Below, piece after piece: positions 50,855 through 64,000 of a DNA stretch of 64,000 bases. Position numbers and translations under genes: made by a program. The stretch comes from Alphaproteobacteria bacterium (GTDB lineage: Bacteria; Pseudomonadota; Alphaproteobacteria; CAAHEQ01; UBA3637). The stretch is taken from the NCBI GenBank assembly GCA_045613285.1, contig JAZLAQ010000017.1, positions 8,264 through 72,263 of the forward strand, in the 5' to 3' direction. How positions within the stretch are numbered: position 1 is the stretch's first letter; each line of letters begins with the position of its first letter. Under the pieces are notes generated by a model that made no database searches, had not been told where the DNA came from, and was given only the letters and a program-made list of their open reading frames with translations.

Positions 50855-50943
50855 GCGGATATGGCGGAACTGGTAGACGCAACAGACTTAAAATCTGTTG
50901 GGACTTTGCTCCCGTGCCGGTTCGATTCCGGCTTTCCGCACCA
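50855..50943 (+). tRNA. trnL: tRNA-Leu (anticodon TAA)
   Basis: 89 nt, GCGGATATGGCGGAACTGGTAGACGC..., anticodon loop CTTAAAA, long variable arm, GGTTCGATTCC T-arm, CCA end. Confidence 0.92.
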
Positions 50944-51077
50944 ATTAAAAAAGCTTGAAAAATCAAGCATTTTAAATCAAGGTCAAGGTTTTATCCTTGG
51001 CCTTTTTTGTTTTTGAAAAACACTTGTGTATCAACGGTTTATCCTATTTTTATTCAATTTGAACGAAAGGAAAAAAT

Positions 51078-52517
51078 ATGGTAAAAAACTGTGATGCAAA
51101 GTGGGATGCGCACCAATTTTCTGCACCAATACGTTTATGGTTGCGAAATCGTGTATTTTATAGTATAATGGAACTCCCTCGTGTGAATGGAAAAAGAAGA
51201 TATCATCGAATTTCTTTACATACGACCAATTATTATGAAGCCAGAGAGAAGTTACATTACATGGGAATCACATTTGATCAAAAAATTGCCGATAAAATCA
51301 GATTAAAATTGGCTGCAAAGCCTTTTTGGTCACAAAAGGAACTAAATAAAATTCGTGATGAAGCCATTGAAGAGTATAATACAGAGTACGCAGCTGCTAA
51401 CCCTGAGGCCTCCTTATTAAAGCAAAGTGAAAAAGTCACATCTGTACCCCAAAATTATATTGATAGCCTTATGTCAGCTCTTCTTCCTAAACCACAACAA
51501 GCACCACAGTATACTATCCAAGAAATTTTTGATGCTATGCTCTTAAAAAGCAATAATAAAAAGGCTTCCAAAGATCGTAAAAAGAATATGATTATCAAAA
51601 TGTTAGAGGAAGTTGGTTTATCATTGAAGGACAATTATACGAAATTTCACAATATCAAAATCATTGATCGGATCAGTGAAAATGTGTTGAATATTAAGGA
51701 CTTGAAAAACGGTGGTAAAAAAACACGGTTGGCTTATATCAGAGAGTTAGTCAGTTGTGCCTGTTCTATGGAACCAGATATTTACTCAATGAAAGTCATT
51801 GCCAATCTACCCAAGGTAAGAAAAGACAGTTCGAAGGCAGTAAAGAGCCATAAACAATATTCAAGTGAGCAATTATTAAATATTTTTGATCCAAAACATG
51901 ATTTTTTCAAAAATAATCCGGACTGCTTTTGGATTTGCATGGTTTCCTTATTTACAGGGTCGAGAGCCAATGCAGCCATCACCCTTCAATACGATGATAT
52001 TATAAACGAAGATGGGATTGATTGTATTTACTTTCAATCGAATCATAAGGCAAAGCAATTAAAAAATCAGGCTTCGGAACGAAAGGTCCCTATTCATCAT
52101 CAATTATTGAATTTGGGCTTTTTAGACTATGTCAGACGTAAAAAATCCAAACTAAAAGCATCAGGAACGGACTTTATCTTTGAAGGGGCAGTACATAAAA
52201 AAAGTCAGGCATATGACAATAATTACATCTCACGGCACATTAGTCCCTTTTTAAAAGGGGTTGGTGTCAAAAGTAACGCCCATGACGGATATGATTTCCA
52301 TTCATTTAGACAAACCGTCAGCCATATGTTGCAGGATACAGGACTTCCCAATTCATATATCAATGATATCATCGGATGGGAAGGCAAAGGTACGATGGAA
52401 GAATCCTATTCTAAGCACACATTGGATCAGATTAAAAAGAAACTGGACAGTTTCGAATATGACTTTTTAAAACCTCATTTTGCTGAGTGGAAGAAAATTA
52501 TGGCTGAAAAACCCTAA
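51078..52517 (+). CDS. Tyrosine-type site-specific recombinase (phage integrase family)
   Basis: C-terminal catalytic pattern: GSRANAAITL (Arg), HSFRQTVSHML (H-x-x-R), GW...MEESYSKH (Tyr). Adjacent to a tRNA. Confidence 0.85.
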   Translation: MVKNCDAKWDAHQFSAPIRLWLRNRVFYSIMELPRVNGKRRYHRISLHTTNYYEAREKLHYMGITFDQKIADKIRLKLAAKPFWSQKELNKIRDEAIEEYNTEYAAANPEASLLKQSEKVTSVPQNYIDSLMSALLPKPQQAPQYTIQEIFDAMLLKSNNKKASKDRKKNMIIKMLEEVGLSLKDNYTKFHNIKIIDRISENVLNIKDLKNGGKKTRLAYIRELVSCACSMEPDIYSMKVIANLPKVRKDSSKAVKSHKQYSSEQLLNIFDPKHDFFKNNPDCFWICMVSLFTGSRANAAITLQYDDIINEDGIDCIYFQSNHKAKQLKNQASERKVPIHHQLLNLGFLDYVRRKKSKLKASGTDFIFEGAVHKKSQAYDNNYISRHISPFLKGVGVKSNAHDGYDFHSFRQTVSHMLQDTGLPNSYINDIIGWEGKGTMEESYSKHTLDQIKKKLDSFEYDFLKPHFAEWKKIMAEKP

Positions 52518-53086
52518 ACATGACGTTTCACTCTTCTTTTTCCGATTTTAACAGTATCTTTTAAATGTTCGATTTTATCAAGTCGGATGTTTGATGGATT
52601 TACCGTTTTTGCACATCTAGTTGCTGGGGCATTATTTGATTTTTTTCGCTGTTTGGGTCTATGCCTTATTAAAAGTAAAATAGCAGCTAAATGATCTGTG
52701 CTTAACTTTCTTACGTCTTTAATGGATAAAGGGCACACCATACCATTTTTCTTTATTTCACTTTTTAAGTGACTTAATCTTCCCAATTCATCATTCCGAA
52801 AATCAAATTCAGTTATAATCTGATCGATTTCGGAAATATTTTTTATCAACAATCGAATCCAGGATAAAAGGGTTGTATCTGGGATACCAATATCCTTCCT
52901 TGTCTCTCGGCTACTATGGCCTTTTAAGTAGTGTTTGATTGCCCGTTTTTTATCTTTCAGTAGGTGGCCATTCCATATCTCTTGGGTATAGGTACACCCG
53001 CAATCATAACACTTAAAACGTTGTTTTCCTCTACTATTTTTGCCATTTTTAATATAGTAGATCGAACCACAACTTGGACATTGCAT
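52514..53086 (-). CDS. IS1 InsA-like zinc-ribbon/HTH protein with no DDE domain
   Basis: MQCPSCGS...NGKNSRGKQRFKCYDCGCTY resembles the InsA zinc ribbon. An HTH-like segment follows (RETRKDIGIPDTTLLSWIR). GGAGG RBS before the ATG at 53086. Confidence 0.5.
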   Translation of the reverse strand: MQCPSCGSIYYIKNGKNSRGKQRFKCYDCGCTYTQEIWNGHLLKDKKRAIKHYLKGHSSRETRKDIGIPDTTLLSWIRLLIKNISEIDQIITEFDFRNDELGRLSHLKSEIKKNGMVCPLSIKDVRKLSTDHLAAILLLIRHRPKQRKKSNNAPATRCAKTVNPSNIRLDKIEHLKDTVKIGKRRVKRHV

Positions 53087-53385
53087 AATTGCCTCCATTT
53101 TTTATTAAAATTTTAGCACGTTTTTTTCATAAAATCAATCTTTATTACGCATAATAGGCAAAAAAACAGGGTAAAAATTAAAATTTTTTTACAAATAATC
53201 AATGACTTATAAAAAACTTTATTTTTTTAGGTCATTTTTTTAGCAAAAAAACATTCTAGGTAGGGAAGGCGCCACAAAAGTGTCTTTACCAGCCGAAAAA
53301 AATTTAACGATTTTTGAAAGTTGGTTAGCGGATGAGGACATTCCTCATCTTAACGTCAATGACATTATAGTGAAAGGTAACCAAA

Positions 53386-54513
53386 ATGTCAAGAAAAATT
53401 AAAGAAGCAAAATCCCGCTTTGAAATGCAAGGGTATACAAATCTTTTTGCGTCAGGATCAATCGACTTGACGTATATTGAACAAGAATTAAATTTGATAC
53501 CGACGGTCAGTTGTGAACTTGTTCCGATCCGTGCACGTTGGACACGCGAGGTTATTGGCCACCCACAAGAAACGGAAGTTGTTTGTGGTGACATCTCGGA
53601 CAAAGCCACATTTGAAAAGCTTGTCAAACTACACTTGGCTAAGGGAAATGTGGGCGTGAAAGCCTCTCCCGTTTGCCGTGATTTCACGCTTGCAAATACC
53701 AAGCGTGATCCCAATAGTAAGAGAGCAAACCTATACAAGTACGTGTTGGAATTTGTTCGTCGCACAAGTCCTGTTTGGGTAGTCATCGAAAATTCCGATC
53801 AAATGATGAAAATCAAGGTCGGTGGCAAAATCGTCGGCATGAAAATTGTCGATGCATTAAAAGCCATGGGGTATTATGTGGATTATGGCGTGCAAGATTG
53901 TGCAGGCTTTAATACTCCATAACATCGCAGACGCACAATTATTATTGCGCATAAGTATAAATAATGTTATTTGCCAAAACCTGGTAACAAGCTCATCACT
54001 TTGCGTGATGCAATTGGACACTTGCCTGTCCTTGAATGTGGGCAAAAGTCCAATATTAAGTGGCACGATGCATCCATGTTTACATGGACAGCATCGCAAA
54101 TTGCGATTATGGCACATACCCCAAGTGGGAAATCGGCTCATGATAATCCGTATCCTTGGTTACCATTAACCGCAGCTGGATTGCCGAGTAAGGCGCGCTT
54201 TAAGTGTTCATTCCAACGCAAAGATCCAGATGATGCCAGTAACACTCTGTTGCAAGATAGCAAAAGCATCTCTGGCTTCAGAAACTGCCATTATGGCAAT
54301 TTTATCGGGTATGATTCAACAGGTCTTCGTCTGTTTGACAGCTGTAGGCCCCTGTCCGTTTTGGAGATTTACATCGTAACAGGTATCGATCCTGATGAAA
54401 ATGGTGACCTGCCAATCCCGGCATGGGCGAGTGACAACCTCATTCGTCAAATGATCGGCGGGTGTTGGGCACCGCGTCATTGTCTTGAGGTTATGCGTAG
54501 TGTAGCTAGATAA
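53386..54513 (+). pseudogene. DNA (cytosine-5) methyltransferase interrupted by two in-frame TAA stops
   Basis: ORFs 53386-53922 and 53971-54513 share one frame. Motifs present are LFASGS (I), SPVCRDF (IV, catalytic Cys) and IENSD (VI). FNTP-TAA-HRRRTIII shows the stop sitting where the Gln of P-Q-x-R-x-R (VIII) is expected. A second TAA lies at 53962-53964. Confidence 0.75.
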
Positions 54514-55779: not shown

Positions 55780-56697
55780 TTATTTTACCAACTTTTTTAC
55801 GTCATCCATTTGATTTTTTTCAAAGAGGGCGTAACCGGATTGGGTAAAGGTACTGGGTTTAATTTTGCCCTCACTCATCCAATAACGGATACTGGATACA
55901 GGTACATTACATAATTTTGCGAACTTTGAAATAGTCAGCATATCCTTTGTTGGTTCTTTGGTATTTACGTCCAACAAATCAATCATCATTTTTAAAGATC
56001 TGTTCAAAGCGGTCAGCATGAATTTATAATATGCTTCATTTTCACCCTTGGTCTGATATGTTTCAAGGGCGGTTAAATACCTGCGTCTATCAATGGATCT
56101 GATAATAATAGGACCATATCCGTTTTCAAGCAAAATTGCGTTCATAAGAAGTCTTGCAGTCCTTCCATTACCATCAACAAAGGGGTGAATGGTGACTAAA
56201 CGATAATGGGCTTCCAACGCTTTAATCAAAATATCATCTGTTTTTTGTACTAACCAAGCACCAAAGTCCTTCATTAAATCAGGAACTTTTAATGGATTAG
56301 GTAAAACAGTTTGTGATCCGGATATACGAACGCGAACAGAACGGTAGAATCCTGCATTTGTACTGTCTATGCCGGATAAAATTATTTTATGGATCTGTAA
56401 TACAAAATCCTCATCAATTTTGGTCTTATTTTTACCTGCCTCTAAAATAAATTCAAAAGCCTTGGCGTGATTAATTGCTTCCATATAATCTTTAACAGGC
56501 TTTGATCCAGACGTTATTTGCTCATCAATGGCCAGTTCTGTTTCGCGACGGGTTAAGGTATTGCCTTCAATCGCATTGGAAGTATAAGCAAGTTCTGTTT
56601 TAAGCCAAGCATCCAACACCTTTTGATTGTCTTTATTTTTCAAAAGTTGGTTCAATTTGACTTTGTTATCTGCAATTTTTTGTTTGATTTCTTGCAT
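55780..56697 (-). CDS. Fic-family protein (class II type with N-terminal inhibitory helix) and a C-terminal HTH
   Basis: Fic core HPFVDGNGRTARLLMN. The upstream TSNAIEGN fits the (S/T)xxxE(G/N) inhibitory motif. The C-terminal LTISKFAKLCNVPVSSIRYWMSEGKI resembles a MerR/excisionase-type HTH. Confidence 0.85.
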   Translation of the reverse strand: MQEIKQKIADNKVKLNQLLKNKDNQKVLDAWLKTELAYTSNAIEGNTLTRRETELAIDEQITSGSKPVKDYMEAINHAKAFEFILEAGKNKTKIDEDFVLQIHKIILSGIDSTNAGFYRSVRVRISGSQTVLPNPLKVPDLMKDFGAWLVQKTDDILIKALEAHYRLVTIHPFVDGNGRTARLLMNAILLENGYGPIIIRSIDRRRYLTALETYQTKGENEAYYKFMLTALNRSLKMMIDLLDVNTKEPTKDMLTISKFAKLCNVPVSSIRYWMSEGKIKPSTFTQSGYALFEKNQMDDVKKLVK

Positions 56698-56800
56698 AGT
56701 GACTCCTTACTTTATGGTTATCATTTTCTATAACTATAAACCATATTTTTTTAAAAGTCAAGCAAAAACTTTAACCTTTTGTGTTTTTTTAAGTATAAAG

Positions 56801-57145
56801 TCAATATTCGTCTGACAAGAGGATTGTCATAACCCTATGTGTATGAGCAGGATTACTTGGATCAGGGCTTAGATAGGTATCATCGTTATTATAATAGTCT
56901 ATCTTAAAAAATATTGTATCACCATTATAGTCAAACGAGCCAAAATCATGTTCACCGTACACGTCATTACTATCGTTAAAATCATTAAAATTTTTAACAC
57001 GTTCCAATATATCACATAATTCTTTTGGGCTCTTGCTTCTGATCCCTTTGCTTAACAATACTGTTCCACCGCTGAATGTTTGTCTCAACTGATCGTTCAA
57101 ATTGCGTATCTTTGCTATTCGTTCTTTTTCTTCTTTATTCGACAT
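56801..57145 (-). CDS. DUF3768-family protein
   Basis: ...VYGEHDFGSFDYNGDTIFFKIDYYNNDDTYLSPDPSNPAHTHRVMTILLSDEY matches my recollection of the DUF3768 conserved core. Start set at MSNKEEK. Confidence 0.6.
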   Translation of the reverse strand: MSNKEEKERIAKIRNLNDQLRQTFSGGTVLLSKGIRSKSPKELCDILERVKNFNDFNDSNDVYGEHDFGSFDYNGDTIFFKIDYYNNDDTYLSPDPSNPAHTHRVMTILLSDEY

Positions 57146-57341
57146 TAAACCACTCCACACATGTTGCTAACAAATGATTATAATCACCACTTGTGGCTTC
57201 TTTGGTAAATTCATTGATTTCAGATTCTGGTAAACGGACTCGTTTCATAGCGGTTCTGCATCTGCCCAAGATACTAAATGCATTACCGTCGAGCCCGATT
57301 AACTGAATAATTATATCCGGATATTTTGGATTATTGTTCAT
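57135..57341 (-). CDS. Hypothetical small protein (68 aa)
   Basis: The ORF overlaps the DUF3768 start by 11 nt, giving an operon-like arrangement. Confidence 0.45.
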   Translation of the reverse strand: MNNNPKYPDIIIQLIGLDGNAFSILGRCRTAMKRVRLPESEINEFTKEATSGDYNHLLATCVEWFNVE

Positions 57342-57367
57342 ACTTTTCCTTATATCAAACCATCAAC

Positions 57368-57682
57368 TTAATATTTAGAACTACCCAATTTGAATATGGA
57401 TAAAGCGCTTGATCTTTGTATTGAAATAAATTTTTTGAATTGTCTTAACGCATTAAGGTATGACTCATGGCTCCGTTTTCCAATGCACCATTGTTCACCA
57501 GATCTACCATACCGTTCTAAAACAGTGTTAATATTATCAGCCAATTGTTGTTCGGTCATACCTTCAATTAAACATATTCTGTTCACTCTCCAGACGTAAT
57601 CCAAGGCACTTGACGGATTTGAATTGGCAGAATATTCTTTAAAACCATGGGCAACTAAATATTTACAAAAATTTTCAAACAT
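57368..57682 (-). CDS. Hypothetical protein (104 aa)
   Basis: AGGAG RBS upstream (rc of ctcctttcg). Same strand and operon as the neighbouring small genes. Confidence 0.5.
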   Translation of the reverse strand: MFENFCKYLVAHGFKEYSANSNPSSALDYVWRVNRICLIEGMTEQQLADNINTVLERYGRSGEQWCIGKRSHESYLNALRQFKKFISIQRSSALSIFKLGSSKY

Positions 57683-57697
57683 AAAAACTCCTTTCGA

Positions 57698-57829
57698 TTA
57701 GCCAACTGATACAATATCTGTTACAACTGCACAGCCACGTTCTGCTTCTTTATGACACGCTTCAATCGCATCATGAAGGGACCAATAAATGGTCGGCAAT
57801 AATACATCATTTACTTTAATTTGATACAT
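57698..57829 (-). CDS. Possible 43-aa ORF (MYQIKVNDVLLPTIYWSLHDAIEACHKEAERGCAVVTDIVSVG)
   Basis: Not in the supplied track because it is under 60 aa. AGGAAA RBS 6 nt before the ATG. First gene of the minus-strand small-gene operon. Confidence 0.3.
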   Translation of the reverse strand: MYQIKVNDVLLPTIYWSLHDAIEACHKEAERGCAVVTDIVSVG

Positions 57830-58042
57830 AATATTTTCCTTTCATTTCCATATGTTATTTTATGTTCAACAGGCATATTATGCCGTGTTTTAACGGGAAA
57901 GTACGCAAAAAAATGCAAAAAACTCAAAAAAAGTGCATTTTTGCTAGCAATCTGTTAGTAAAATCAGTAAAAAATAATACGAAAGTCTTGATTTTTACTA
58001 TAGTATTCTGTATAATTGTCCAAAAAGAGGAATAAATTAACG

Positions 58043-60385
58043 ATGTCGTACCAACAATTATCAGAAGAAGATACAAAACGGATTGATATTACCCCTGCTA
58101 TTGTTGGGCATGGGTGGGATAACCGGAACCAAATTCGTCAAGAGTTTAGTTTTACAAAGGGTCGTATAATGGTTAGGGGAAAAGAGGTTAAACGTGGAGA
58201 ACCTAAACGAGCCGATTATGTTTTGTTTTACAAACCCAATTTACCTTTAGCGATTGTTGAAGCAAAAAATTCATATAAATCTGTGAGCGCAGGTATTCAA
58301 CAAGGTATCGATTATGCACAAACTCTCAATATCCCTTTTGTTTACAGTTCAAATGGAAAAGGATTTTATGAACACGATTTATTGACTGGCGCTGAACGTG
58401 AAATCGATTTAAATAGCTTTCCAACTCCAACCGAATTATGGAGGCGTTATAAAAAAGCAAAAGATATAACCGATGAACAAGAGGATAAAATATTTGCTCC
58501 ATACTATGATGATGGATCAGGACGTACACCTCGGTATTATCAGAGAATTGCTATAAATCGAACCATTGAAGCTATTGCAAAAGGACAAAATCGCATATTA
58601 CTTGTGATGGCAACAGGTACGGGAAAAACTTATACAGCATTTCAAATTATCTGGAGGTTATGGAAATCAAAGCAGAAAAAACGTATTTTATTTTTAGCCG
58701 ATCGTAATATTTTAGTTGATCAAACCAAAAATCAGGATTTTGCCCCATTTGGTAAAGCAATGACTAAAATCACGAACAGAACTATTGATAAGTCATATGA
58801 AATTTATCTTTCATTGTATCAGGCAGTAACCGGAACTGATGAAGAAAAGAATATATACAAACAATTTTCTCCTGATTTTTTTGATTTGATAGTCGTTGAT
58901 GAATGTCATCGAGGTTCTGCAGCAGAAGACTCTGCTTGGCATGATATTTTAACTTATTTTAGCTCGGCTACTCAAATTGGCATGACAGCAACACCTAAAG
59001 AAGAAACTAATATTTCCACATCAACATATTTTGGTGATCCTCTTTACACATACTCACTTAAACAAGGTATTGAAGATGGCTTTTTAGCTCCATATAAGGT
59101 GTTAAAAATAGGCCTAAATCGTGATTTAATGGGATGGAGACCAGAACTAGGAAAGCTCGATAAATACGGCAATGAGATTGAGGACAAACAATATACTCAA
59201 CCAGATTTTGACCGTACATTAGTTCTCGAAAAACGTACCAAAGAAGTTGCAAAACGAGTTATGCAATTTCAAAGAGAGAATGATCCATATGCTAAGACGA
59301 TTGTATTTTGCGAGAATATAGACCACGCTGACAGAATGAGAGCTGCTTTATGTCAAGAAGCACAAGAGTTTGTTAAAGAAAATCCTAAATACATTATGAA
59401 AATTACTGGTGATGATGCTTTAGGCAAAGCAGAACTTGATAATTTTATTGATTTAGATAGTCGTTATCCTGTTATAGCAGTTACATCTCGGTTAATGTCA
59501 ACTGGTGTAGATGCCAAAACTTGTAAATTGATTGTGCTTGACCGTACTGTTGGCTCTATGACTGAGTTTAAGCAAATTATCGGTCGTGGTACACGTGTGA
59601 ACGAAGAATACGGCAAATATTACTTTACGATTATGGACTTCCGGAATGCAACAAAACAATTTGCAAATCCAGAGTTTGATGGCTACCCAACGGAAGTTAA
59701 ATTAGAGCTTGGTGCCAATGTTGATGAACAAGATGCCGATGAAGGCGATATTGATGATATTGAGTTCGAAGAAGGTATTGAAGATACTTATGATTGGGAT
59801 GAAGCAGAGCCAATAGAAGAACATAAAGTCAAAAAATATTATGTTGATGATGTAGAGGTTGAAGTCGTTGATGTTAATGTCCAATACCTTGATGAAAACG
59901 GCAAACTAATTGCAGAAAATATCAAGTCATTTTGCAGAAATTTTATGCTTAAACGCTTTCCAGAAGAAAAAGATTTTATTGGTATATGGCAATCAGCATC
60001 AAATAAAACCAAGTTATTGACTGGTTTGAGTGATACAGGCTTGTTTTTAGATGAATTGCGCCGTGAATATGGTCGGGAATATGATGTGTACGATGTTATT
60101 TTGAAAAATACCTATGACATAGAGCCACTAACCAGAGAGCAAAGAGCGCAGAAAGCGAACAAAATACTTGAACAGCTTGAAGGCGATTGTAAAAATATAT
60201 TCGTTGATGTGATGGCAAAATATGTTGAGGTTGGTATTTCAGCCCTTGAAAACCGTAATACTTTCCGTATAGAGCCATTTACTTCACAATATGGGACAGG
60301 TGTTGAAATTGTAAGAAAAATTGGCGGTAATGAAAAATATATCGAAATTACCGAAAAATTGAAGAATGCTATTTATGGAGAGTAA
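58043..60385 (+). CDS. hsdR: Type I restriction enzyme R subunit (HsdR)
   Basis: N-terminal nuclease motif (SEEDTKRIDITPAI..., ADYVLF...AIVEAKNS = D...ExK), helicase motifs MATGTGKT and VVDECHRGS, and QIIGRGTR motif VI. Start at the ATG at 58043 has an AAGAGGA RBS. Confidence 0.93.
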   Translation: MSYQQLSEEDTKRIDITPAIVGHGWDNRNQIRQEFSFTKGRIMVRGKEVKRGEPKRADYVLFYKPNLPLAIVEAKNSYKSVSAGIQQGIDYAQTLNIPFVYSSNGKGFYEHDLLTGAEREIDLNSFPTPTELWRRYKKAKDITDEQEDKIFAPYYDDGSGRTPRYYQRIAINRTIEAIAKGQNRILLVMATGTGKTYTAFQIIWRLWKSKQKKRILFLADRNILVDQTKNQDFAPFGKAMTKITNRTIDKSYEIYLSLYQAVTGTDEEKNIYKQFSPDFFDLIVVDECHRGSAAEDSAWHDILTYFSSATQIGMTATPKEETNISTSTYFGDPLYTYSLKQGIEDGFLAPYKVLKIGLNRDLMGWRPELGKLDKYGNEIEDKQYTQPDFDRTLVLEKRTKEVAKRVMQFQRENDPYAKTIVFCENIDHADRMRAALCQEAQEFVKENPKYIMKITGDDALGKAELDNFIDLDSRYPVIAVTSRLMSTGVDAKTCKLIVLDRTVGSMTEFKQIIGRGTRVNEEYGKYYFTIMDFRNATKQFANPEFDGYPTEVKLELGANVDEQDADEGDIDDIEFEEGIEDTYDWDEAEPIEEHKVKKYYVDDVEVEVVDVNVQYLDENGKLIAENIKSFCRNFMLKRFPEEKDFIGIWQSASNKTKLLTGLSDTGLFLDELRREYGREYDVYDVILKNTYDIEPLTREQRAQKANKILEQLEGDCKNIFVDVMAKYVEVGISALENRNTFRIEPFTSQYGTGVEIVRKIGGNEKYIEITEKLKNAIYGE

Positions 60386-60387
60386 AA

Positions 60388-61314
60388 ATGAAAAAAATAG
60401 TTGAGGCTATCGCATGTGGAATTGTTTTTTTATTAGCTGTATGCATTATTATTTCCACAATATTCAATCCTTTTCATATCCAACATGAAATTATATTTTC
60501 ACCGGTTACTATTATATATATCTTTTTAATATTGCTTGTTTTGTTATTCGCTAATCATTATGAAGAAATTAATATAGGGAAGGTTTTTGAATTAAGGAAA
60601 ATTATAAAAGCAAAAGAGGAAGAAAAAGAAAGTTTACAGAAGAGAAATGACGCTTTAATTAATCAAATCACTATGATGACAACCAATATTTGTTCCCAAC
60701 AAAATCAAAGCACATTTAATTTGAACGGTTTTAGTGTTGAAACATTAAAAGAACTATTGAATGTTAAGGCAGCAACAAAGGAAGAAAAAGATGCCAACAA
60801 GAAACAAAAAGAAGAGGAGGTAAAAGAAGCCCGTGAAGCGTTAAACAACGATGAAAGAACTAGAAGATGGGATCATTGGAGGATGATAGAGGGTAATTTT
60901 ATTGATTACACTTTGTTGGATAAAAAAGATGCTCAGAAAGAAGTTAAAATGAGTTCAATTGTGGATTCGTTAGACCCTATTTCAACAGAATTTCCACTAC
61001 TTTTTGATGGATATTACAAAGTGGGCGAAGATGACATTTTTATGGATGTAAAAATTATGGCCTCTCTTATGCAAAGAGAACGTATATACATAATGCTAAA
61101 TCGGGTAAAGTTATATAGAGAGATTAAGAAAAATAATGCCAGTTTGCGTCTTGTATATCTTAATGTGGATAGAAAAGATGCTGATAATGAAAGGTTTTAT
61201 AGAGAAATAGACAGAATAAAATCAATTTTTAAAAAGTCTATTGATAGTGGATTGCTGCAAATAGATGTATATGACAAAAAATCCATAGATGAAATATTAA
61301 AGGATCAACAATGA
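60388..61314 (+). CDS. Unknown 308-aa membrane/coiled-coil protein embedded between hsdR and hsdM
   Basis: The ATG lies 2 nt after the hsdR stop, and its stop overlaps the hsdM ATG. It has two N-terminal TM helices, a KE-rich coiled coil, and a C-terminal globular domain with FDGYY...DDIFMDVKI. Confidence 0.7.
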   Translation: MKKIVEAIACGIVFLLAVCIIISTIFNPFHIQHEIIFSPVTIIYIFLILLVLLFANHYEEINIGKVFELRKIIKAKEEEKESLQKRNDALINQITMMTTNICSQQNQSTFNLNGFSVETLKELLNVKAATKEEKDANKKQKEEEVKEAREALNNDERTRRWDHWRMIEGNFIDYTLLDKKDAQKEVKMSSIVDSLDPISTEFPLLFDGYYKVGEDDIFMDVKIMASLMQRERIYIMLNRVKLYREIKKNNASLRLVYLNVDRKDADNERFYREIDRIKSIFKKSIDSGLLQIDVYDKKSIDEILKDQQ

Positions 61315-62768
61315 CAAACTTATCATCAACGATTAAGACTATTCAAAACATCATGCGCAAAGATTCTGGCGTTGATGGTGATGCTCAACGTATTGGACAA
61401 CTCTCATGGATGTTGTTTTTAAAAATATTTTCAGATAGCGAAGAAAACTGGAGCTTTTATGAAGAGGGGTATGAATCTCCTATCCCAGCAGAGCTTCAAT
61501 GGGCTGCATGGGCAAGTGATGATGAAGGTATAACAGGAGATGAACTTCTGGATTTTGTGAACAATAAACTTTTCCCAACATTGAAAAATCTGCCAACCGA
61601 AGGCAATAAAAGAGCCTTCATGATTCGGTCCATTTTTGAAGATGCGATCAATTACATGAAATCCGGTCAGTTATTACGTCAAATAATCAATAAAATTAAT
61701 GAAATTGACTTTAACTCATCTGAAGATCGTCATATTTTTGGTGATATTTATGAACAGATTTTAAAAGGTTTGCAATCAGCGGGCAATGCCGGTGAATTTT
61801 ATACACCACGAGCTGTTACTCAATTTATGACCGAAATGGTGGATCCCCAACTTGGTCAAACTGTATTGGATCCTGCATGTGGTACGGGTGGTTTCTTGGC
61901 CTGTGCAATAAACCATATGAAAAAGCAAGTCAAAACTCCTGCAGATGAGCAAAAGCTTCAAAAAGGCATTATCGGTTGGGAGAAAAAACAACTGCCCCAT
62001 ATTTTATGTACAACCAATATGATTTTACATGGCTTAGATGTTCCAAATATTCAACACCTGATTGCTGGTAGCTTGGCCAGACCTCTCAACAGTTATGGAA
62101 AAGACGATCGGGTCGATGTCATTTTAACCAACCCTCCATTTGGTGGTATGGAAGAAGATGGGATAGAAAATAATTTCCCGGCCGATGTGCGCACCAAAGA
62201 AACCGCCGACCTTTTCTTGGTTTTAATTATGAAACTTTTAAAAGATGGTGGAAAATGCGCAATGGTGTTACCGGATGGGGCATTATTTGGTGAAGGCGTT
62301 AAGACCCGTATTAAAGAAAAGTTGTTGACTGAGTGCAATTTGCATACAATCATTCGTCTGCCCAAATCGGTTTTTGCACCCTACACATCTATCAACACCA
62401 ATTTATTATTTTTTGAAAAGGGTAGCCCGACAAAGACCACTTGGTTCTACCGTTTAGATATGCCTGATGGTGTTAAAGCCTTCAATAAAACCAATCCAAT
62501 GAAAATAGAACATTTTTCACCGGTTCGGGAATGGTGGAATAACAAACAGGAAATTCAACAAGATGGTTTTGATAAAGCCAAGCAATATACCTTTGCAGAA
62601 TTGAAAGCACGTAACTTTAACCTTGATCTGTGCGGTTATCCGACTATTGAAGAAGAAATTTTAGAACCCAAGGAACTGATCAATCAATATCAAGCCAAAA
62701 GAACTGAATTAAATGCGAATATTGATGGGATATTGGCTGATATAAATAAAATATTGGGGATTAAATAG
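61311..62768 (+). CDS. hsdM: Type I R-M N6-adenine DNA methyltransferase subunit (HsdM)
   Basis: N-terminal HsdM_N block (IKTIQNIMRKDSGVDGDAQRIGQLSWMLFLK), DPACGTGGFL (motif I) and NPPFGG (motif IV). Confidence 0.95.
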   Translation: MTNLSSTIKTIQNIMRKDSGVDGDAQRIGQLSWMLFLKIFSDSEENWSFYEEGYESPIPAELQWAAWASDDEGITGDELLDFVNNKLFPTLKNLPTEGNKRAFMIRSIFEDAINYMKSGQLLRQIINKINEIDFNSSEDRHIFGDIYEQILKGLQSAGNAGEFYTPRAVTQFMTEMVDPQLGQTVLDPACGTGGFLACAINHMKKQVKTPADEQKLQKGIIGWEKKQLPHILCTTNMILHGLDVPNIQHLIAGSLARPLNSYGKDDRVDVILTNPPFGGMEEDGIENNFPADVRTKETADLFLVLIMKLLKDGGKCAMVLPDGALFGEGVKTRIKEKLLTECNLHTIIRLPKSVFAPYTSINTNLLFFEKGSPTKTTWFYRLDMPDGVKAFNKTNPMKIEHFSPVREWWNNKQEIQQDGFDKAKQYTFAELKARNFNLDLCGYPTIEEEILEPKELINQYQAKRTELNANIDGILADINKILGIK

Positions 62769-63635
62769 ATGAACGTTGATATTTCAAATATGGTAATCAA
62801 TATTGGCGAACAATTTTCAAAAATAAATTGGCTTGATGTTGGAGTTACTTTTATTTCCGTGTTTTTAGGTGCTTTTTGGGCTTATAAATTCGGTTTAAAA
62901 TTAGAAATGCTTAAAGCCAAACGTCAAATGAGAGGTGATTTTTGTTCATTATCTGCAGAAGTACAGTTAAAGTTATCAGAATTTCTTAGATATAAAGAGA
63001 ATTTCTTAGATAATATGTTACGATTACATAACGAGGAAAAATTACCGTCAAAAGAAAATTTTTTAATGTTCCCACAGCTTTCATTTTCTTTTGATTTTAA
63101 TAGATATATTTTTCTATCCGATTGTAATCGAGCATTCCTTTCAGAAATGCAGACACTAAAAAACATTGAAGATTTACTAAAAACAACAAAAAATGACTAC
63201 GTAAACAATCTCAAAAATACATTAAACAATAAAAACCTTAATGCTATAAAAGCACTTCAATTTTCTTTTGAAAATTTATATCAAATATATGTTTTAATGT
63301 GTGTTAAATTATATTATTTTAATAAACATTTATGTGAATGCTATGCCCGTTTTTTTAATGTTTATTATTTCGAAAATATCAAAGACGAATATAAAATTAT
63401 AGAAGAATATCATAATTTAGATAAAGATATTAAAGAAGGTATATCTCATTCTTCTAATATTCAATGGGATAAAGAATTCAATTTTTATTGGCAACAACCG
63501 ATGAGTATAAAATGCTATTTTTGTCTGTATTGGCGCATATTAAAAAATAAAATTCAAAAAGTTAAACATTTTTTTATTAAACCAATAAAATGTAAAAACT
63601 GTAGTGCTTGTAAATTCAAAAAAAGGAAAAAGTAA
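62769..63635 (+). CDS. Unknown 288-aa single-TM protein embedded between hsdM and hsdS
   Basis: The ATG directly abuts the hsdM stop, and its stop lies 1 nt before the hsdS ATG. One TM helix (VGVTFISVFLGAFWAY), an AT-rich helical body, and a C-terminal Cys cluster KCYFC...CKNCSACKF. Confidence 0.65.
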   Translation: MNVDISNMVINIGEQFSKINWLDVGVTFISVFLGAFWAYKFGLKLEMLKAKRQMRGDFCSLSAEVQLKLSEFLRYKENFLDNMLRLHNEEKLPSKENFLMFPQLSFSFDFNRYIFLSDCNRAFLSEMQTLKNIEDLLKTTKNDYVNNLKNTLNNKNLNAIKALQFSFENLYQIYVLMCVKLYYFNKHLCECYARFFNVYYFENIKDEYKIIEEYHNLDKDIKEGISHSSNIQWDKEFNFYWQQPMSIKCYFCLYWRILKNKIQKVKHFFIKPIKCKNCSACKFKKRKK

Positions 63636-63636
63636 T

Positions 63637-64000
63637 ATGAAAGCGCAAGATCTAAAAAATTCCATATTACAATTGGCGATTCAAGGGAAATTGGTACCTC
63701 AAGATCCGAATGATGAACCGGCCAATGTCCTATATGAAAAAATCCAATCTGAAAAGCAAAAACTGATTAAAGAAGGCAAAATCAAAAAAGACAAGTCCTT
63801 ACCATCAATCACCGATAATGAAATCCCTTTCACAATCCCCTCAACATGGAAATGGGTACGATTGGGTGATGTTTTTAACATTATAATGGGACAATCGCCA
63901 AATGGAGATAGTGTTTCTCACTCGGTATTAGAGGGAATCGAATTTCATCAAGGGAAGAGTTTTTTTTCAAAAACTTACTTATTGCACTCTGACACTTATA
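63637..64000 (+). CDS. hsdS: Type I R-M specificity subunit (HsdS), 3' end beyond the window
   Basis: Read directly from the sequence; it is absent from the track because it has no stop in the window. It starts MKAQDLKNSILQLAIQGKLVPQDPNDEPANVLYEKIQSEKQKLIKEGKIKKDK...IPSTWKWVRLGDVFNIIMGQSP, a typical HsdS N-terminus and first target-recognition domain (TRD). Confidence 0.85.
   Translation, partial: MKAQDLKNSILQLAIQGKLVPQDPNDEPANVLYEKIQSEKQKLIKEGKIKKDKSLPSITDNEIPFTIPSTWKWVRLGDVFNIIMGQSPNGDSVSHSVLEGIEFHQGKSFFSKTYLLHSDTY

Follow-up and report, generated by a model that had tools for sequence, protein, structure and literature searches.

We describe here a type I restriction-modification (R-M) operon that carries two inserted genes, orf308 and orf288, at the right-hand end of a 64,000-nucleotide (nt) stretch of an Alphaproteobacteria bacterium (contig JAZLAQ010000017.1 of assembly GCA_045613285.1, positions 8,264 to 72,263, forward strand), the whole of which we call the window. 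The operon reads hsdR-orf308-hsdM-orf288-hsdS and its closest relatives are found in uncultured gut Alphaproteobacteria. An earlier note on this DNA had described five tightly packed genes on the same strand, and the listing of open reading frames (ORFs), together with direct reading of the junctions, confirms it: hsdR, orf308, hsdM, orf288 and the start of hsdS are all + strand ORFs at the coordinates of Table 1, with successive intergenic gaps of 2, -4, 0 and 1 nt. The TAA of hsdR is thus followed almost immediately by the ATG of orf308, the TGA of orf308 overlaps the ATG of hsdM in the tetranucleotide ATGA (61311-61314), the TAG of hsdM abuts the ATG of orf288, and a single nucleotide separates the TAA of orf288 from the ATG of hsdS. 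Every start in the operon has a Shine-Dalgarno-like purine-rich motif 6-10 nt on its 5' side. For hsdR the longest ORF begins at a TTG at 58016, and the ATG that we retain agrees with the homologues (780 amino acids (aa), MSY..LSEED).

Table 1. Features of the hsd locus and its surroundings in the window.
Feature	Position	Strand	Remarks
tRNA-Leu(taa), then tyrosine-recombinase integrase (479 aa)	50855-52517	+	Probable left island boundary/integration site
Fic-MerR fusion gene and DUF3768 gene	55780-57160	-	Both found again beside related hsd loci
Candidate sigma-70-like promoter, TTGATT-17-TATAAT	57988-58016	+	10/12 matches, 27 nt upstream of the hsdR ATG
hsdR, type IB (EcoAI family) R subunit, 780 aa, intact	58043-60385	+	NF046051, HSDR_N, ResIII, Helicase_C, EcoEI_R_C, PADLOC REase_I
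orf308, 308 aa, occupant of the hsdR/hsdM slot	60388-61314	+	Predicted membrane hairpin, coiled coil, PD-(D/E)xK-like C-terminal domain
orf308, predicted two-helix membrane hairpin, aa 4-22 and 35-53	60397-60546	+	Kyte-Doolittle 19-mer means 2.97 and 2.93; model helices 2-26 and 39-57
orf308, predicted long helix aa 63-105, coiled-coil-like stalk	60574-60702	+	AlphaFold2 model
orf308, predicted alpha-beta-beta-beta-alpha-beta C-terminal domain, aa 155-295	60850-61272	+	E168, D196-P-I, D207, D216, D220-x-K222
hsdM, type I N6-adenine methyltransferase, 485 aa	61311-62768	+	N6_Mtase 4.8e-74, HsdM_N 5.7e-12, PADLOC MTase_I 4e-208
orf288, 288 aa, occupant of the hsdM/hsdS slot	62769-63635	+	Helical, borderline N-terminal anchor, polybasic Cys-rich C-terminal tail
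orf288, hydrophobic helix aa 19-40, then conserved E46, K49, R52, R55	62823-62888	+	Most conserved part of the family
hsdS, 5' part, 121 codons	63637-64000	+	Ended by the window edge; PADLOC Specificity_I 2e-47

Judged by the domains of HsdR and HsdM, the R-M system is of type IB (EcoAI family). HsdR is a full-length member of the EcoAI/FtnUII family (NF046051, 1071 bits where the cutoff is 550, covering positions 1-767 of the 768 in the model), and the complete HsdS of a syntenic locus, L011, has 540 aa. The packing of the genes predicts a single transcript for all five, and the promoter candidate of Table 1 is the best + strand match within 57300-64000. The same five-gene array is found again on four independent metagenome contigs (L011, L047, L048 and L049), and this recurrence, together with the purifying selection on orf308 described below, argues that the arrangement is not due to chance. 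The inserts are real and conserved genes without annotation, inside a type I operon and in a dense defence neighbourhood, and to this extent the reading of the earlier note is supported.

Variable slots of the hsd operon

Comparison with related loci (each designated by L and a number) singles out the two positions occupied by the inserts. HsdR and HsdM are 83-97% identical to those of the window across loci, whereas the orf288 homologues of the same loci share 29-45% identity with it. The slot between hsdR and hsdM can be empty, or hold orf308, a divergent orf308-like gene (L016, L031), a gene for an AriA/OLD-like ATPase (L015) or one for a 178-aa protein of unassigned family (L035); the slot between hsdM and hsdS holds either orf288 alone or RhuM (PADLOC candidate PDC-S05) plus orf288. 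No hsd locus lacking orf288 was encountered, but all compared loci were retrieved through searches with orf288 or orf308, so that this absence has no bearing on the dispensability of orf288. The ATPase of L015 (L015:3720-5543) is a 607-aa protein that matches PADLOC AriA (1e-26) in its N-terminal ABC ATPase part and Old (3e-17) over residues 328-591, and it may represent a PARIS/OLD-type fusion lodged within a type I operon.

The occupants of the two slots come and go separately. L011 has an orf288 identical to that of the window and an orf308 just 77% identical, while in L047-49 it is orf308 that is the closer (79% identity), with orf288 at just 38-39%; the DNA identity profile of the operon is accordingly a mosaic of blocks of approximately 100% and approximately 70%. 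These opposite contrasts and the mosaic profile argue that the slots assort independently. The earlier note had seen in the inserts a membrane-associated effector or sensor pair coupled to restriction, and the pairing is not supported: most orf288 loci have no orf308, and the distant orf308 relatives that we examined lie away from orf288. On co-occurrence and independent assortment we reject an obligate orf288-orf308 pair. We also considered whether orf288 covaries with the first target-recognition domain of hsdS and rejected it, because the window and L011 share an identical orf288 while their HsdS proteins are 67% identical over the first 121 aa.

These comparisons bear directly on the idea that both proteins are accessory subunits of the enzyme itself, which would anchor the type IB complex to the inner membrane or control it there, for instance by placing it where DNA enters the cell or by governing restriction alleviation, rather than act as independent defences. 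Stop and start codons that overlap or abut those of hsdR, hsdM and hsdS suggest coupled, stoichiometric synthesis, and the N-termini of both proteins are hydrophobic. Holubova and colleagues reportedly observed, in 2000 and in 2004, that EcoKI and EcoAI associate with the membrane. Nevertheless, the hsdR/hsdM slot is empty in L001-L010, L018 and L019, where HsdR and HsdM are 87-94% identical to those of the window, and orf308 must therefore be dispensable for this enzyme lineage. Unrelated proteins fill the slots in other loci and both insert families are also found away from hsd genes, so that we hold this explanation to be very unlikely.

Two irregularities were seen in related operons. In L001 (L001:3811-3847), and also in L002, L004, L005 and L028, the loss of one nt from a T5 tract (TTTTT to TTTT) splits hsdR, while hsdM, RhuM, the orf288 homologue and hsdS are intact; the loci come from independent gut metagenome assemblies, and the frameshift may be a way in which restriction is inactivated recurrently or by phase variation. 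In L041 (L041:6836-9637) the operon is rearranged: a truncated hsdS of about 65 codons precedes fragments of hsdM and hsdR that lie on the opposite strand, and the orf288 homologue is split, which suggests an inversion or recombination inside the operon.

Predicted fold, selection and distribution of orf308

The earlier note had given both inserts N-terminal transmembrane (TM) helices and had found no family for either. For orf308 the first claim is borne out by two strong hydrophobic segments (about 2.9 on the Kyte-Doolittle scale), whereas orf288 has a borderline single helix. As for the second, neither protein has a significant match in Pfam, NCBIfam, PADLOC v2.0.0, PHROGs or PDB sequences, with single-sequence or profile searches, and the claim thus holds for sequence libraries; it has to be qualified for the C-terminal domain of orf308, which is predicted to be PD-(D/E)xK-like. 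The two hydrophobic helices of orf308 would form a hairpin, with a predicted N-in/C-in topology that leaves the remainder of orf308 inside the cytoplasm.

The AlphaFold2 model of orf308, built from 65 sequences, has a mean predicted local distance difference test (pLDDT) score of 80.5, and of 88-98 over most of the C-terminal core, whose elements are H155-176, E180-187, E206-212, E215-222, H229-247 and E251-258. When the model was compared with the PDB using Foldseek, the leading matches were almost all PD-(D/E)xK nucleases (E 5e-3 to 0.1), among them Can2, Card1, the cap-snatching endonucleases of arenaviruses and bunyaviruses, R.BspD6I and NucS. The orf308 of the window carries a complete D207...D220-x-K222 motif, on beta2 and beta3, and the acidic positions are well conserved among 155 members of the family (D196 in 98%, E/D216 in 95%, D207 in 94%, E/D220 in 90% and E/D168 in 78%). 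Pfam searches with the C-terminal domain alone gave only sub-threshold matches, to RE_TdeIII for 2 of 21 members and to PDDEXK_2 for 1 of 21. Taken together, these observations lead us to assign this domain as PD-(D/E)xK-like with moderate confidence. Two other identities were considered and rejected. An Rz-like spanin is suggested by PHROG matches at E 0.07-0.24 only, in an hsd operon instead of a phage lysis cassette, and the match reflects a composition of TM helices and coiled coil; the weak FtsB/DivIC-like matches are ascribed to the same composition.

Comparing the copies of the window, L011 and L047, the ratio of nonsynonymous to synonymous substitution (dN/dS) of orf308 is 0.11-0.13, with a dS similar to that of hsdR and hsdM, which argues for a functional and long-resident gene. 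Its close relatives form five clusters with 77-95% identity (word-index search), and all those located (L011, L047-49) occupy the hsdR/hsdM slot. The family as a whole is far broader: an exhaustive HMMER search (E <= 1e-3) gathers 223 clusters at 50% identity, mostly near-full-length proteins of approximately 300 aa. A very divergent member (37.7 bits) fills the hsdR/hsdM slot of L016 and L031; it keeps the DPIS, FD, DRLY and AIxNG motifs and lacks the acidic E...ExK residues.

Distant members of the family, at 31% identity or less, behave otherwise. The nine that we examined (L020-L024, L050-L053), which define the scope of what follows, all stand alone, away from hsd genes and from orf288, mostly with their own upstream regions. 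Located members include a Kiritimatiellia metagenome-assembled genome (MAG; L020), a Bacillus isolate (L022) and unclassified metagenome contigs, and the genes have as neighbours BrnT/CopG or FitA-like toxin-antitoxin genes, resolvases and recombinases, SMODS genes, parts of CBASS systems, a patatin gene and, for two members, ordinary housekeeping genes. It is because the distant members stand alone that we regard orf308 as an autonomous single-gene module captured by this hsd lineage. A check across all neighbouring ORFs of the 53 loci found no hidden orf308 or orf288 homologues beyond those already listed.

Other partnerships were observed for the family. In L014 a relative of 317 aa, 37% identical to orf308, lies away from hsd genes and 9 nt after PADLOC candidate PDC-S42 (L014:3246-5237), a 342-aa protein with a central hydrophobic segment; this single instance hints that PDC-S42 may sometimes be partnered by an orf308-type protein. 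In L051 (L051:1894-4529) a distant orf308-family gene and the start of a 56-aa ORF overlap, and a gene for a patatin-like phospholipase and a 193-aa ORF come next, near a CD-NTase fragment interrupted by an insertion sequence (IS); this may be a different operonic partnership of the orf308 family.

The orf288 family and the surrounding island

Homologues of orf288 fall into 32 clusters of 262-289 aa, and every annotated one is called hypothetical. They were found only in gut-type metagenomes; some alleles are common in human-gut metagenomes, one of them occurring on 684 contigs, and a search of IMG/VR found none on viral contigs. The genome scan gave eight loci, mostly in MAGs of uncultured gut Alphaproteobacteria, plus one Gastranaerophilales and one Bacteroidaceae bin, and the metagenome scan gave 22, 19 of them informative. 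Two contexts account for the latter, and for the genome loci as well. In 14 of the 19, orf288 has hsdM, accompanied or not by RhuM, directly on one side and hsdS on the other, and this position is kept in L033 although HsdR and HsdM are there only 45% and 55% identical to those of the window. In the other five, orf288 stands alone, approximately 200 bp upstream of PDC-S01, an AAA_14/DUF4143 ATPase.

The 24 orf288 alleles fall into approximately ten groups at 65% identity and the stand-alone alleles belong to two groups in which embedded ones are mixed with them, suggesting that the gene moved between contexts more than once. In L013 (L013:1437-4894, - strand), L039 and L044 (approximately 1270-1840), the stand-alone copy lies 2-5 kb from a different R-M-like pair, composed of an S-like subunit of 486 aa and a 675-aa protein with an hsdM-like methyltransferase region (26% identity to hsdM), and such copies can thus be said to remain adjacent to R-M genes without being embedded in them. 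The N-terminal stretch of the 675-aa protein looks nuclease-like by eye, and these domain labels are putative.

The AlphaFold2 model of orf288 is all-helical (pLDDT 77), with one very long helix that begins in the hydrophobic segment. Besides the part listed in Table 1, an FLxDCNR and a CYxRFFN motif are conserved, as are C59, C119, C178, C191 and H187, which might form a putative metal site. A HEPN-like R-x6-H motif (consensus R-LYYLNK-H, around H187) was considered and rejected: the Arg position is variable (K in the window; R, H or Y), the His is Asn in some members, and no HEPN structures are among the fold matches.

The position of orf288 directly upstream of hsdS is what makes it the likeliest effector in a guard, or anti-anti-restriction, model of the kind known for Ronin and PrrC. 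Here one or both inserts, and most plausibly orf288, would be a toxic effector held in check by HsdM/HsdS; when Ocr, ArdA or a similar anti-restriction protein of a phage binds the complex, the effector would be freed and the infection aborted. The adjacency to hsdS, with a spacing that resembles translational coupling, is seen in approximately three quarters of the informative loci. Where hsdR is frameshifted, orf288 is kept with hsdM and hsdS, a situation that resembles Ronin, which has no R subunit and whose TM protein, encoded with hsdM/hsdS, is a cell-death effector suppressed by HsdMS (Silas et al., bioRxiv 10.1101/2023.04.06.535777). The neighbouring slot of L015 holds an AriA-like ATPase, AriA being the ATPase of PARIS, a detector of Ocr; and the hypervariability of orf288, like its adjacency to hsdS and its retention beside a frameshifted hsdR, is compatible with a guard as well as with an entry-exclusion factor. 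However, the orf288 alleles beside PDC-S01 have their own upstream region and no adjacent hsdM/hsdS, and they belong to clades mixed with embedded ones; the same orf288 serves with different hsdS target-recognition regions; the relatives of orf308 live mainly outside hsd loci; and neither insert resembles RonA (61 aa, a comparison by size) or PrrC, or matches a PADLOC model. Since orf288 is repeatedly found away from hsdM and hsdS, any coupling to HsdM/HsdS is not obligatory, and we consider the guard model unlikely.

By its gene order the hsd locus is placed on a tRNA-Leu-linked mobile island, because it comes after a tRNA-Leu(taa), an integrase gene, a Fic-MerR gene and a DUF3768 gene. The last two are also present beside the hsd loci L001, L007, L011, L026, L028, L038 and L047-49, in differing orientation and at differing distance, and DUF3768 often precedes a 169-175-aa protein without assigned function; they may belong to the backbone of the element, or be additional defence or anti-defence genes. 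Between 52514 and 54513 the window has overlapping ORFs on both strands and a raised GC content (44-47% at 53500-54500), among them a fragment of a truncated C-5 cytosine methyltransferase (53386-53922) and, on the - strand, an InsA-like zinc-ribbon ORF (52514-53098); the stretch looks like decayed R-M or IS remnants. Sister loci are followed directly downstream by DRT2, by Hachiman (HamA plus helicase) or by an M78/HTH pair, and HipA, Mrr, GmrSD, PDC-S42 and MNT/HEPN-type genes also occur nearby. A search of PLSDB found the locus on no plasmid.

An island of this kind could also carry passengers, that is, membrane proteins without a defence role (conjugation-related, envelope-related or of addiction type) kept by linkage. 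The integrase and tRNA, the Fic and DUF3768 genes, the housekeeping context of some orf308-family members (L053) and the low GC content of the inserts (24.5% for orf288 and 29.6% for orf308, against 35.6-38.1% in the hsd genes and 37% in the window) would all fit. On the other hand, purifying selection on orf308, with a dS like that of hsdR and hsdM, marks a long-term resident; the position of orf288 is constant across hsd lineages with as little as 45-55% HsdR/HsdM identity (L033); the slots are otherwise occupied by defence genes or candidates for such genes; and most genes embedded in such loci are neither mobility nor housekeeping genes, according to Payne et al. (bioRxiv 10.1101/2024.01.29.577857). 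Passengers are, to us, an improbable explanation.

Function of the inserted genes and known systems

The reading that we favour, and hold to be probable though far from certain, is that of an intact type IB operon with two independent accessory cassettes, probably defensive, in which orf308 would be a membrane-tethered nuclease and orf288 a second factor. The hsd operon would be a conserved scaffold, whose hsdR/hsdM and hsdM/hsdS slots exchange unrelated accessory genes by recombination in the conserved flanks. In orf308, the inner-membrane hairpin and a dimerising coiled-coil stalk would hold the cytoplasm-facing nuclease-like domain at the membrane, where it would act on nucleic acid, either cutting entering DNA in the manner of SNIPE or killing the cell abortively. 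The orf288 protein, helical, rapidly diversifying and probably anchored in the membrane, would be a second accessory factor for defence or exclusion, one that rides on hsd expression and yet can work outside the operon. A defence role is favoured because the same slots in related loci hold RhuM and an AriA/OLD-like ATPase. The joint transcription of the genes, the location of the inserts in the membrane, nuclease activity and an anti-phage role are all predicted properties.

Several observations weigh against this reading. Embedding and association are the whole of the case for a defence role. The fold matches of orf308 are weak in their E values and have TM-scores of 0.2-0.27 (normalised to the full 308-aa query), and the position of the catalytic Lys, 222, is K in 39% and R in 30% of the 155 members (K or R in 70%). 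The recurrence of the L016/L031 variant, which has no acidic motif, implies that nuclease activity may not be the function of the whole family, and L020 and L053, approximately a quarter of the distant orf308 loci, have neutral or housekeeping surroundings. As for orf288, its membrane anchor is marginal, with a 19-mer Kyte-Doolittle mean of 1.49 (1.3-1.95 in the family); Foldseek against PDB and BFVD yielded nothing significant, only generic helical bundles with E of at least 0.1; and no fold or motif indicates a mechanism. Finally, promoter-like sites in the region are not above chance (27, against 30.5 in shuffles).

A more elaborate version of the favoured reading, which we find quite improbable, joins all three components in a layered defence at the inner membrane: the R-M enzyme, an orf308 nuclease acting on entering DNA and an orf288 hypervariable guard. 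Here orf308 would discriminate self from non-self by location, as SNIPE does with an unrelated nuclease fold, while orf288 would sense either that a phage interferes with HsdM/HsdS or the presence of a phage component for entry, leading to exclusion or cell death. If this were true, the diversity of orf288 (24 loci form approximately ten clusters at 65% identity) would be the trace of an arms race with phage proteins. Even outside this version, the variability of orf288 greatly exceeds that of the flanking restriction genes, as expected of a protein in direct contact with phage components. The two-slot scaffold also supplies naturally occurring, isogenic-like variants (empty, orf308, AriA-like, RhuM) in which the cooperation of embedded genes with restriction can be studied.

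Among known proteins, Can2/Card1, type II restriction endonucleases and NucS are the best structural matches to the C-terminal domain of orf308, and their D...(D/E)xK arrangement is also seen in the orf308 of the window. The similarity to such PD-(D/E)xK effectors is at the level of the fold, with 10-15% identity and E of at least 5e-3, and the Lys is poorly conserved in the orf308 family; orf308 also differs in its predicted membrane anchor and has no CARF or other sensor domain. A parallel in architecture is SNIPE, a nuclease bound to the membrane that cleaves phage DNA as it is injected and whose tethering keeps it from the chromosome (Saxton et al. 2025 preprint). SNIPE unites an N-terminal anchor, an elongated middle part and a cytoplasmic C-terminal nuclease in one polypeptide, and orf308 would follow this overall logic; but where SNIPE combines a single TM helix with DUF4041 and a GIY-YIG nuclease, the predicted parts of orf308 are a two-helix hairpin, a coiled coil and a PD-(D/E)xK-like domain. 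With no match to DUF4041 or GIY-YIG in Pfam, orf308 would at best work like SNIPE without being a member of it, and its architecture suggests that membrane-tethered nucleases were invented a second time, independently.

PrrC, in the EcoprrI hsd locus, is likewise an extra gene in a type I hsd operon that provides back-up abortive defence. It is, however, a soluble ABC-ATPase fused to an anticodon nuclease, and the inserts have no ATPase or PrrC match in Pfam, NCBIfam or PADLOC. Ronin also has a TM protein tightly linked with type I hsdM/hsdS, in its case an effector released by anti-restriction proteins; it differs in lacking hsdR and in the 61 aa of RonA, whereas here hsdR is intact, the proteins have 288 and 308 aa with large domains predicted to be cytoplasmic, and orf288 also occurs away from hsdM/hsdS.

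A further comparison is with genes nested in type I hsd operons in general. Documented extra genes of this sort are PrrC, the rlo genes of Campylobacter and TgvAB of Vibrio cholerae VPI-2 (PMC11411939), and the 'guilt-by-embedding' survey of Payne et al. (bioRxiv 10.1101/2024.01.29.577857) found genes embedded in type I R-M loci to be mostly defence genes or unknowns, over half of them still unexplained. The suggestion of the earlier note that extra genes in hsd loci serve defence fits this logic, and in related loci the slots hold recognised or candidate defence genes. As with the embedded PDC/HEC genes, TgvAB and rlo, unrelated same-strand genes are nested here between hsd genes in defence islands, and the slots of sister loci carry PDC-S05 (RhuM) and an AriA/OLD-like ATPase. 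In contrast to PDC/HEC genes, orf308 and orf288 match none of the families of PADLOC v2.0.0, and the same is true of the L014 and L016 relatives; TgvAB has demonstrated anti-phage activity (PMC11411939), while our inserts are known from sequence. That the locus holds an undescribed system is thus right as far as the two families go, both absent from Pfam and PADLOC, but embedded hsd genes are already an established kind: what we have are two new families within a known category of embedded defence-type genes, and not a new category. Embedded R-M genes are nonetheless a proven source of new anti-phage systems, to which this locus adds two families, and it differs from the embedded precedents in that two slots are filled at once.

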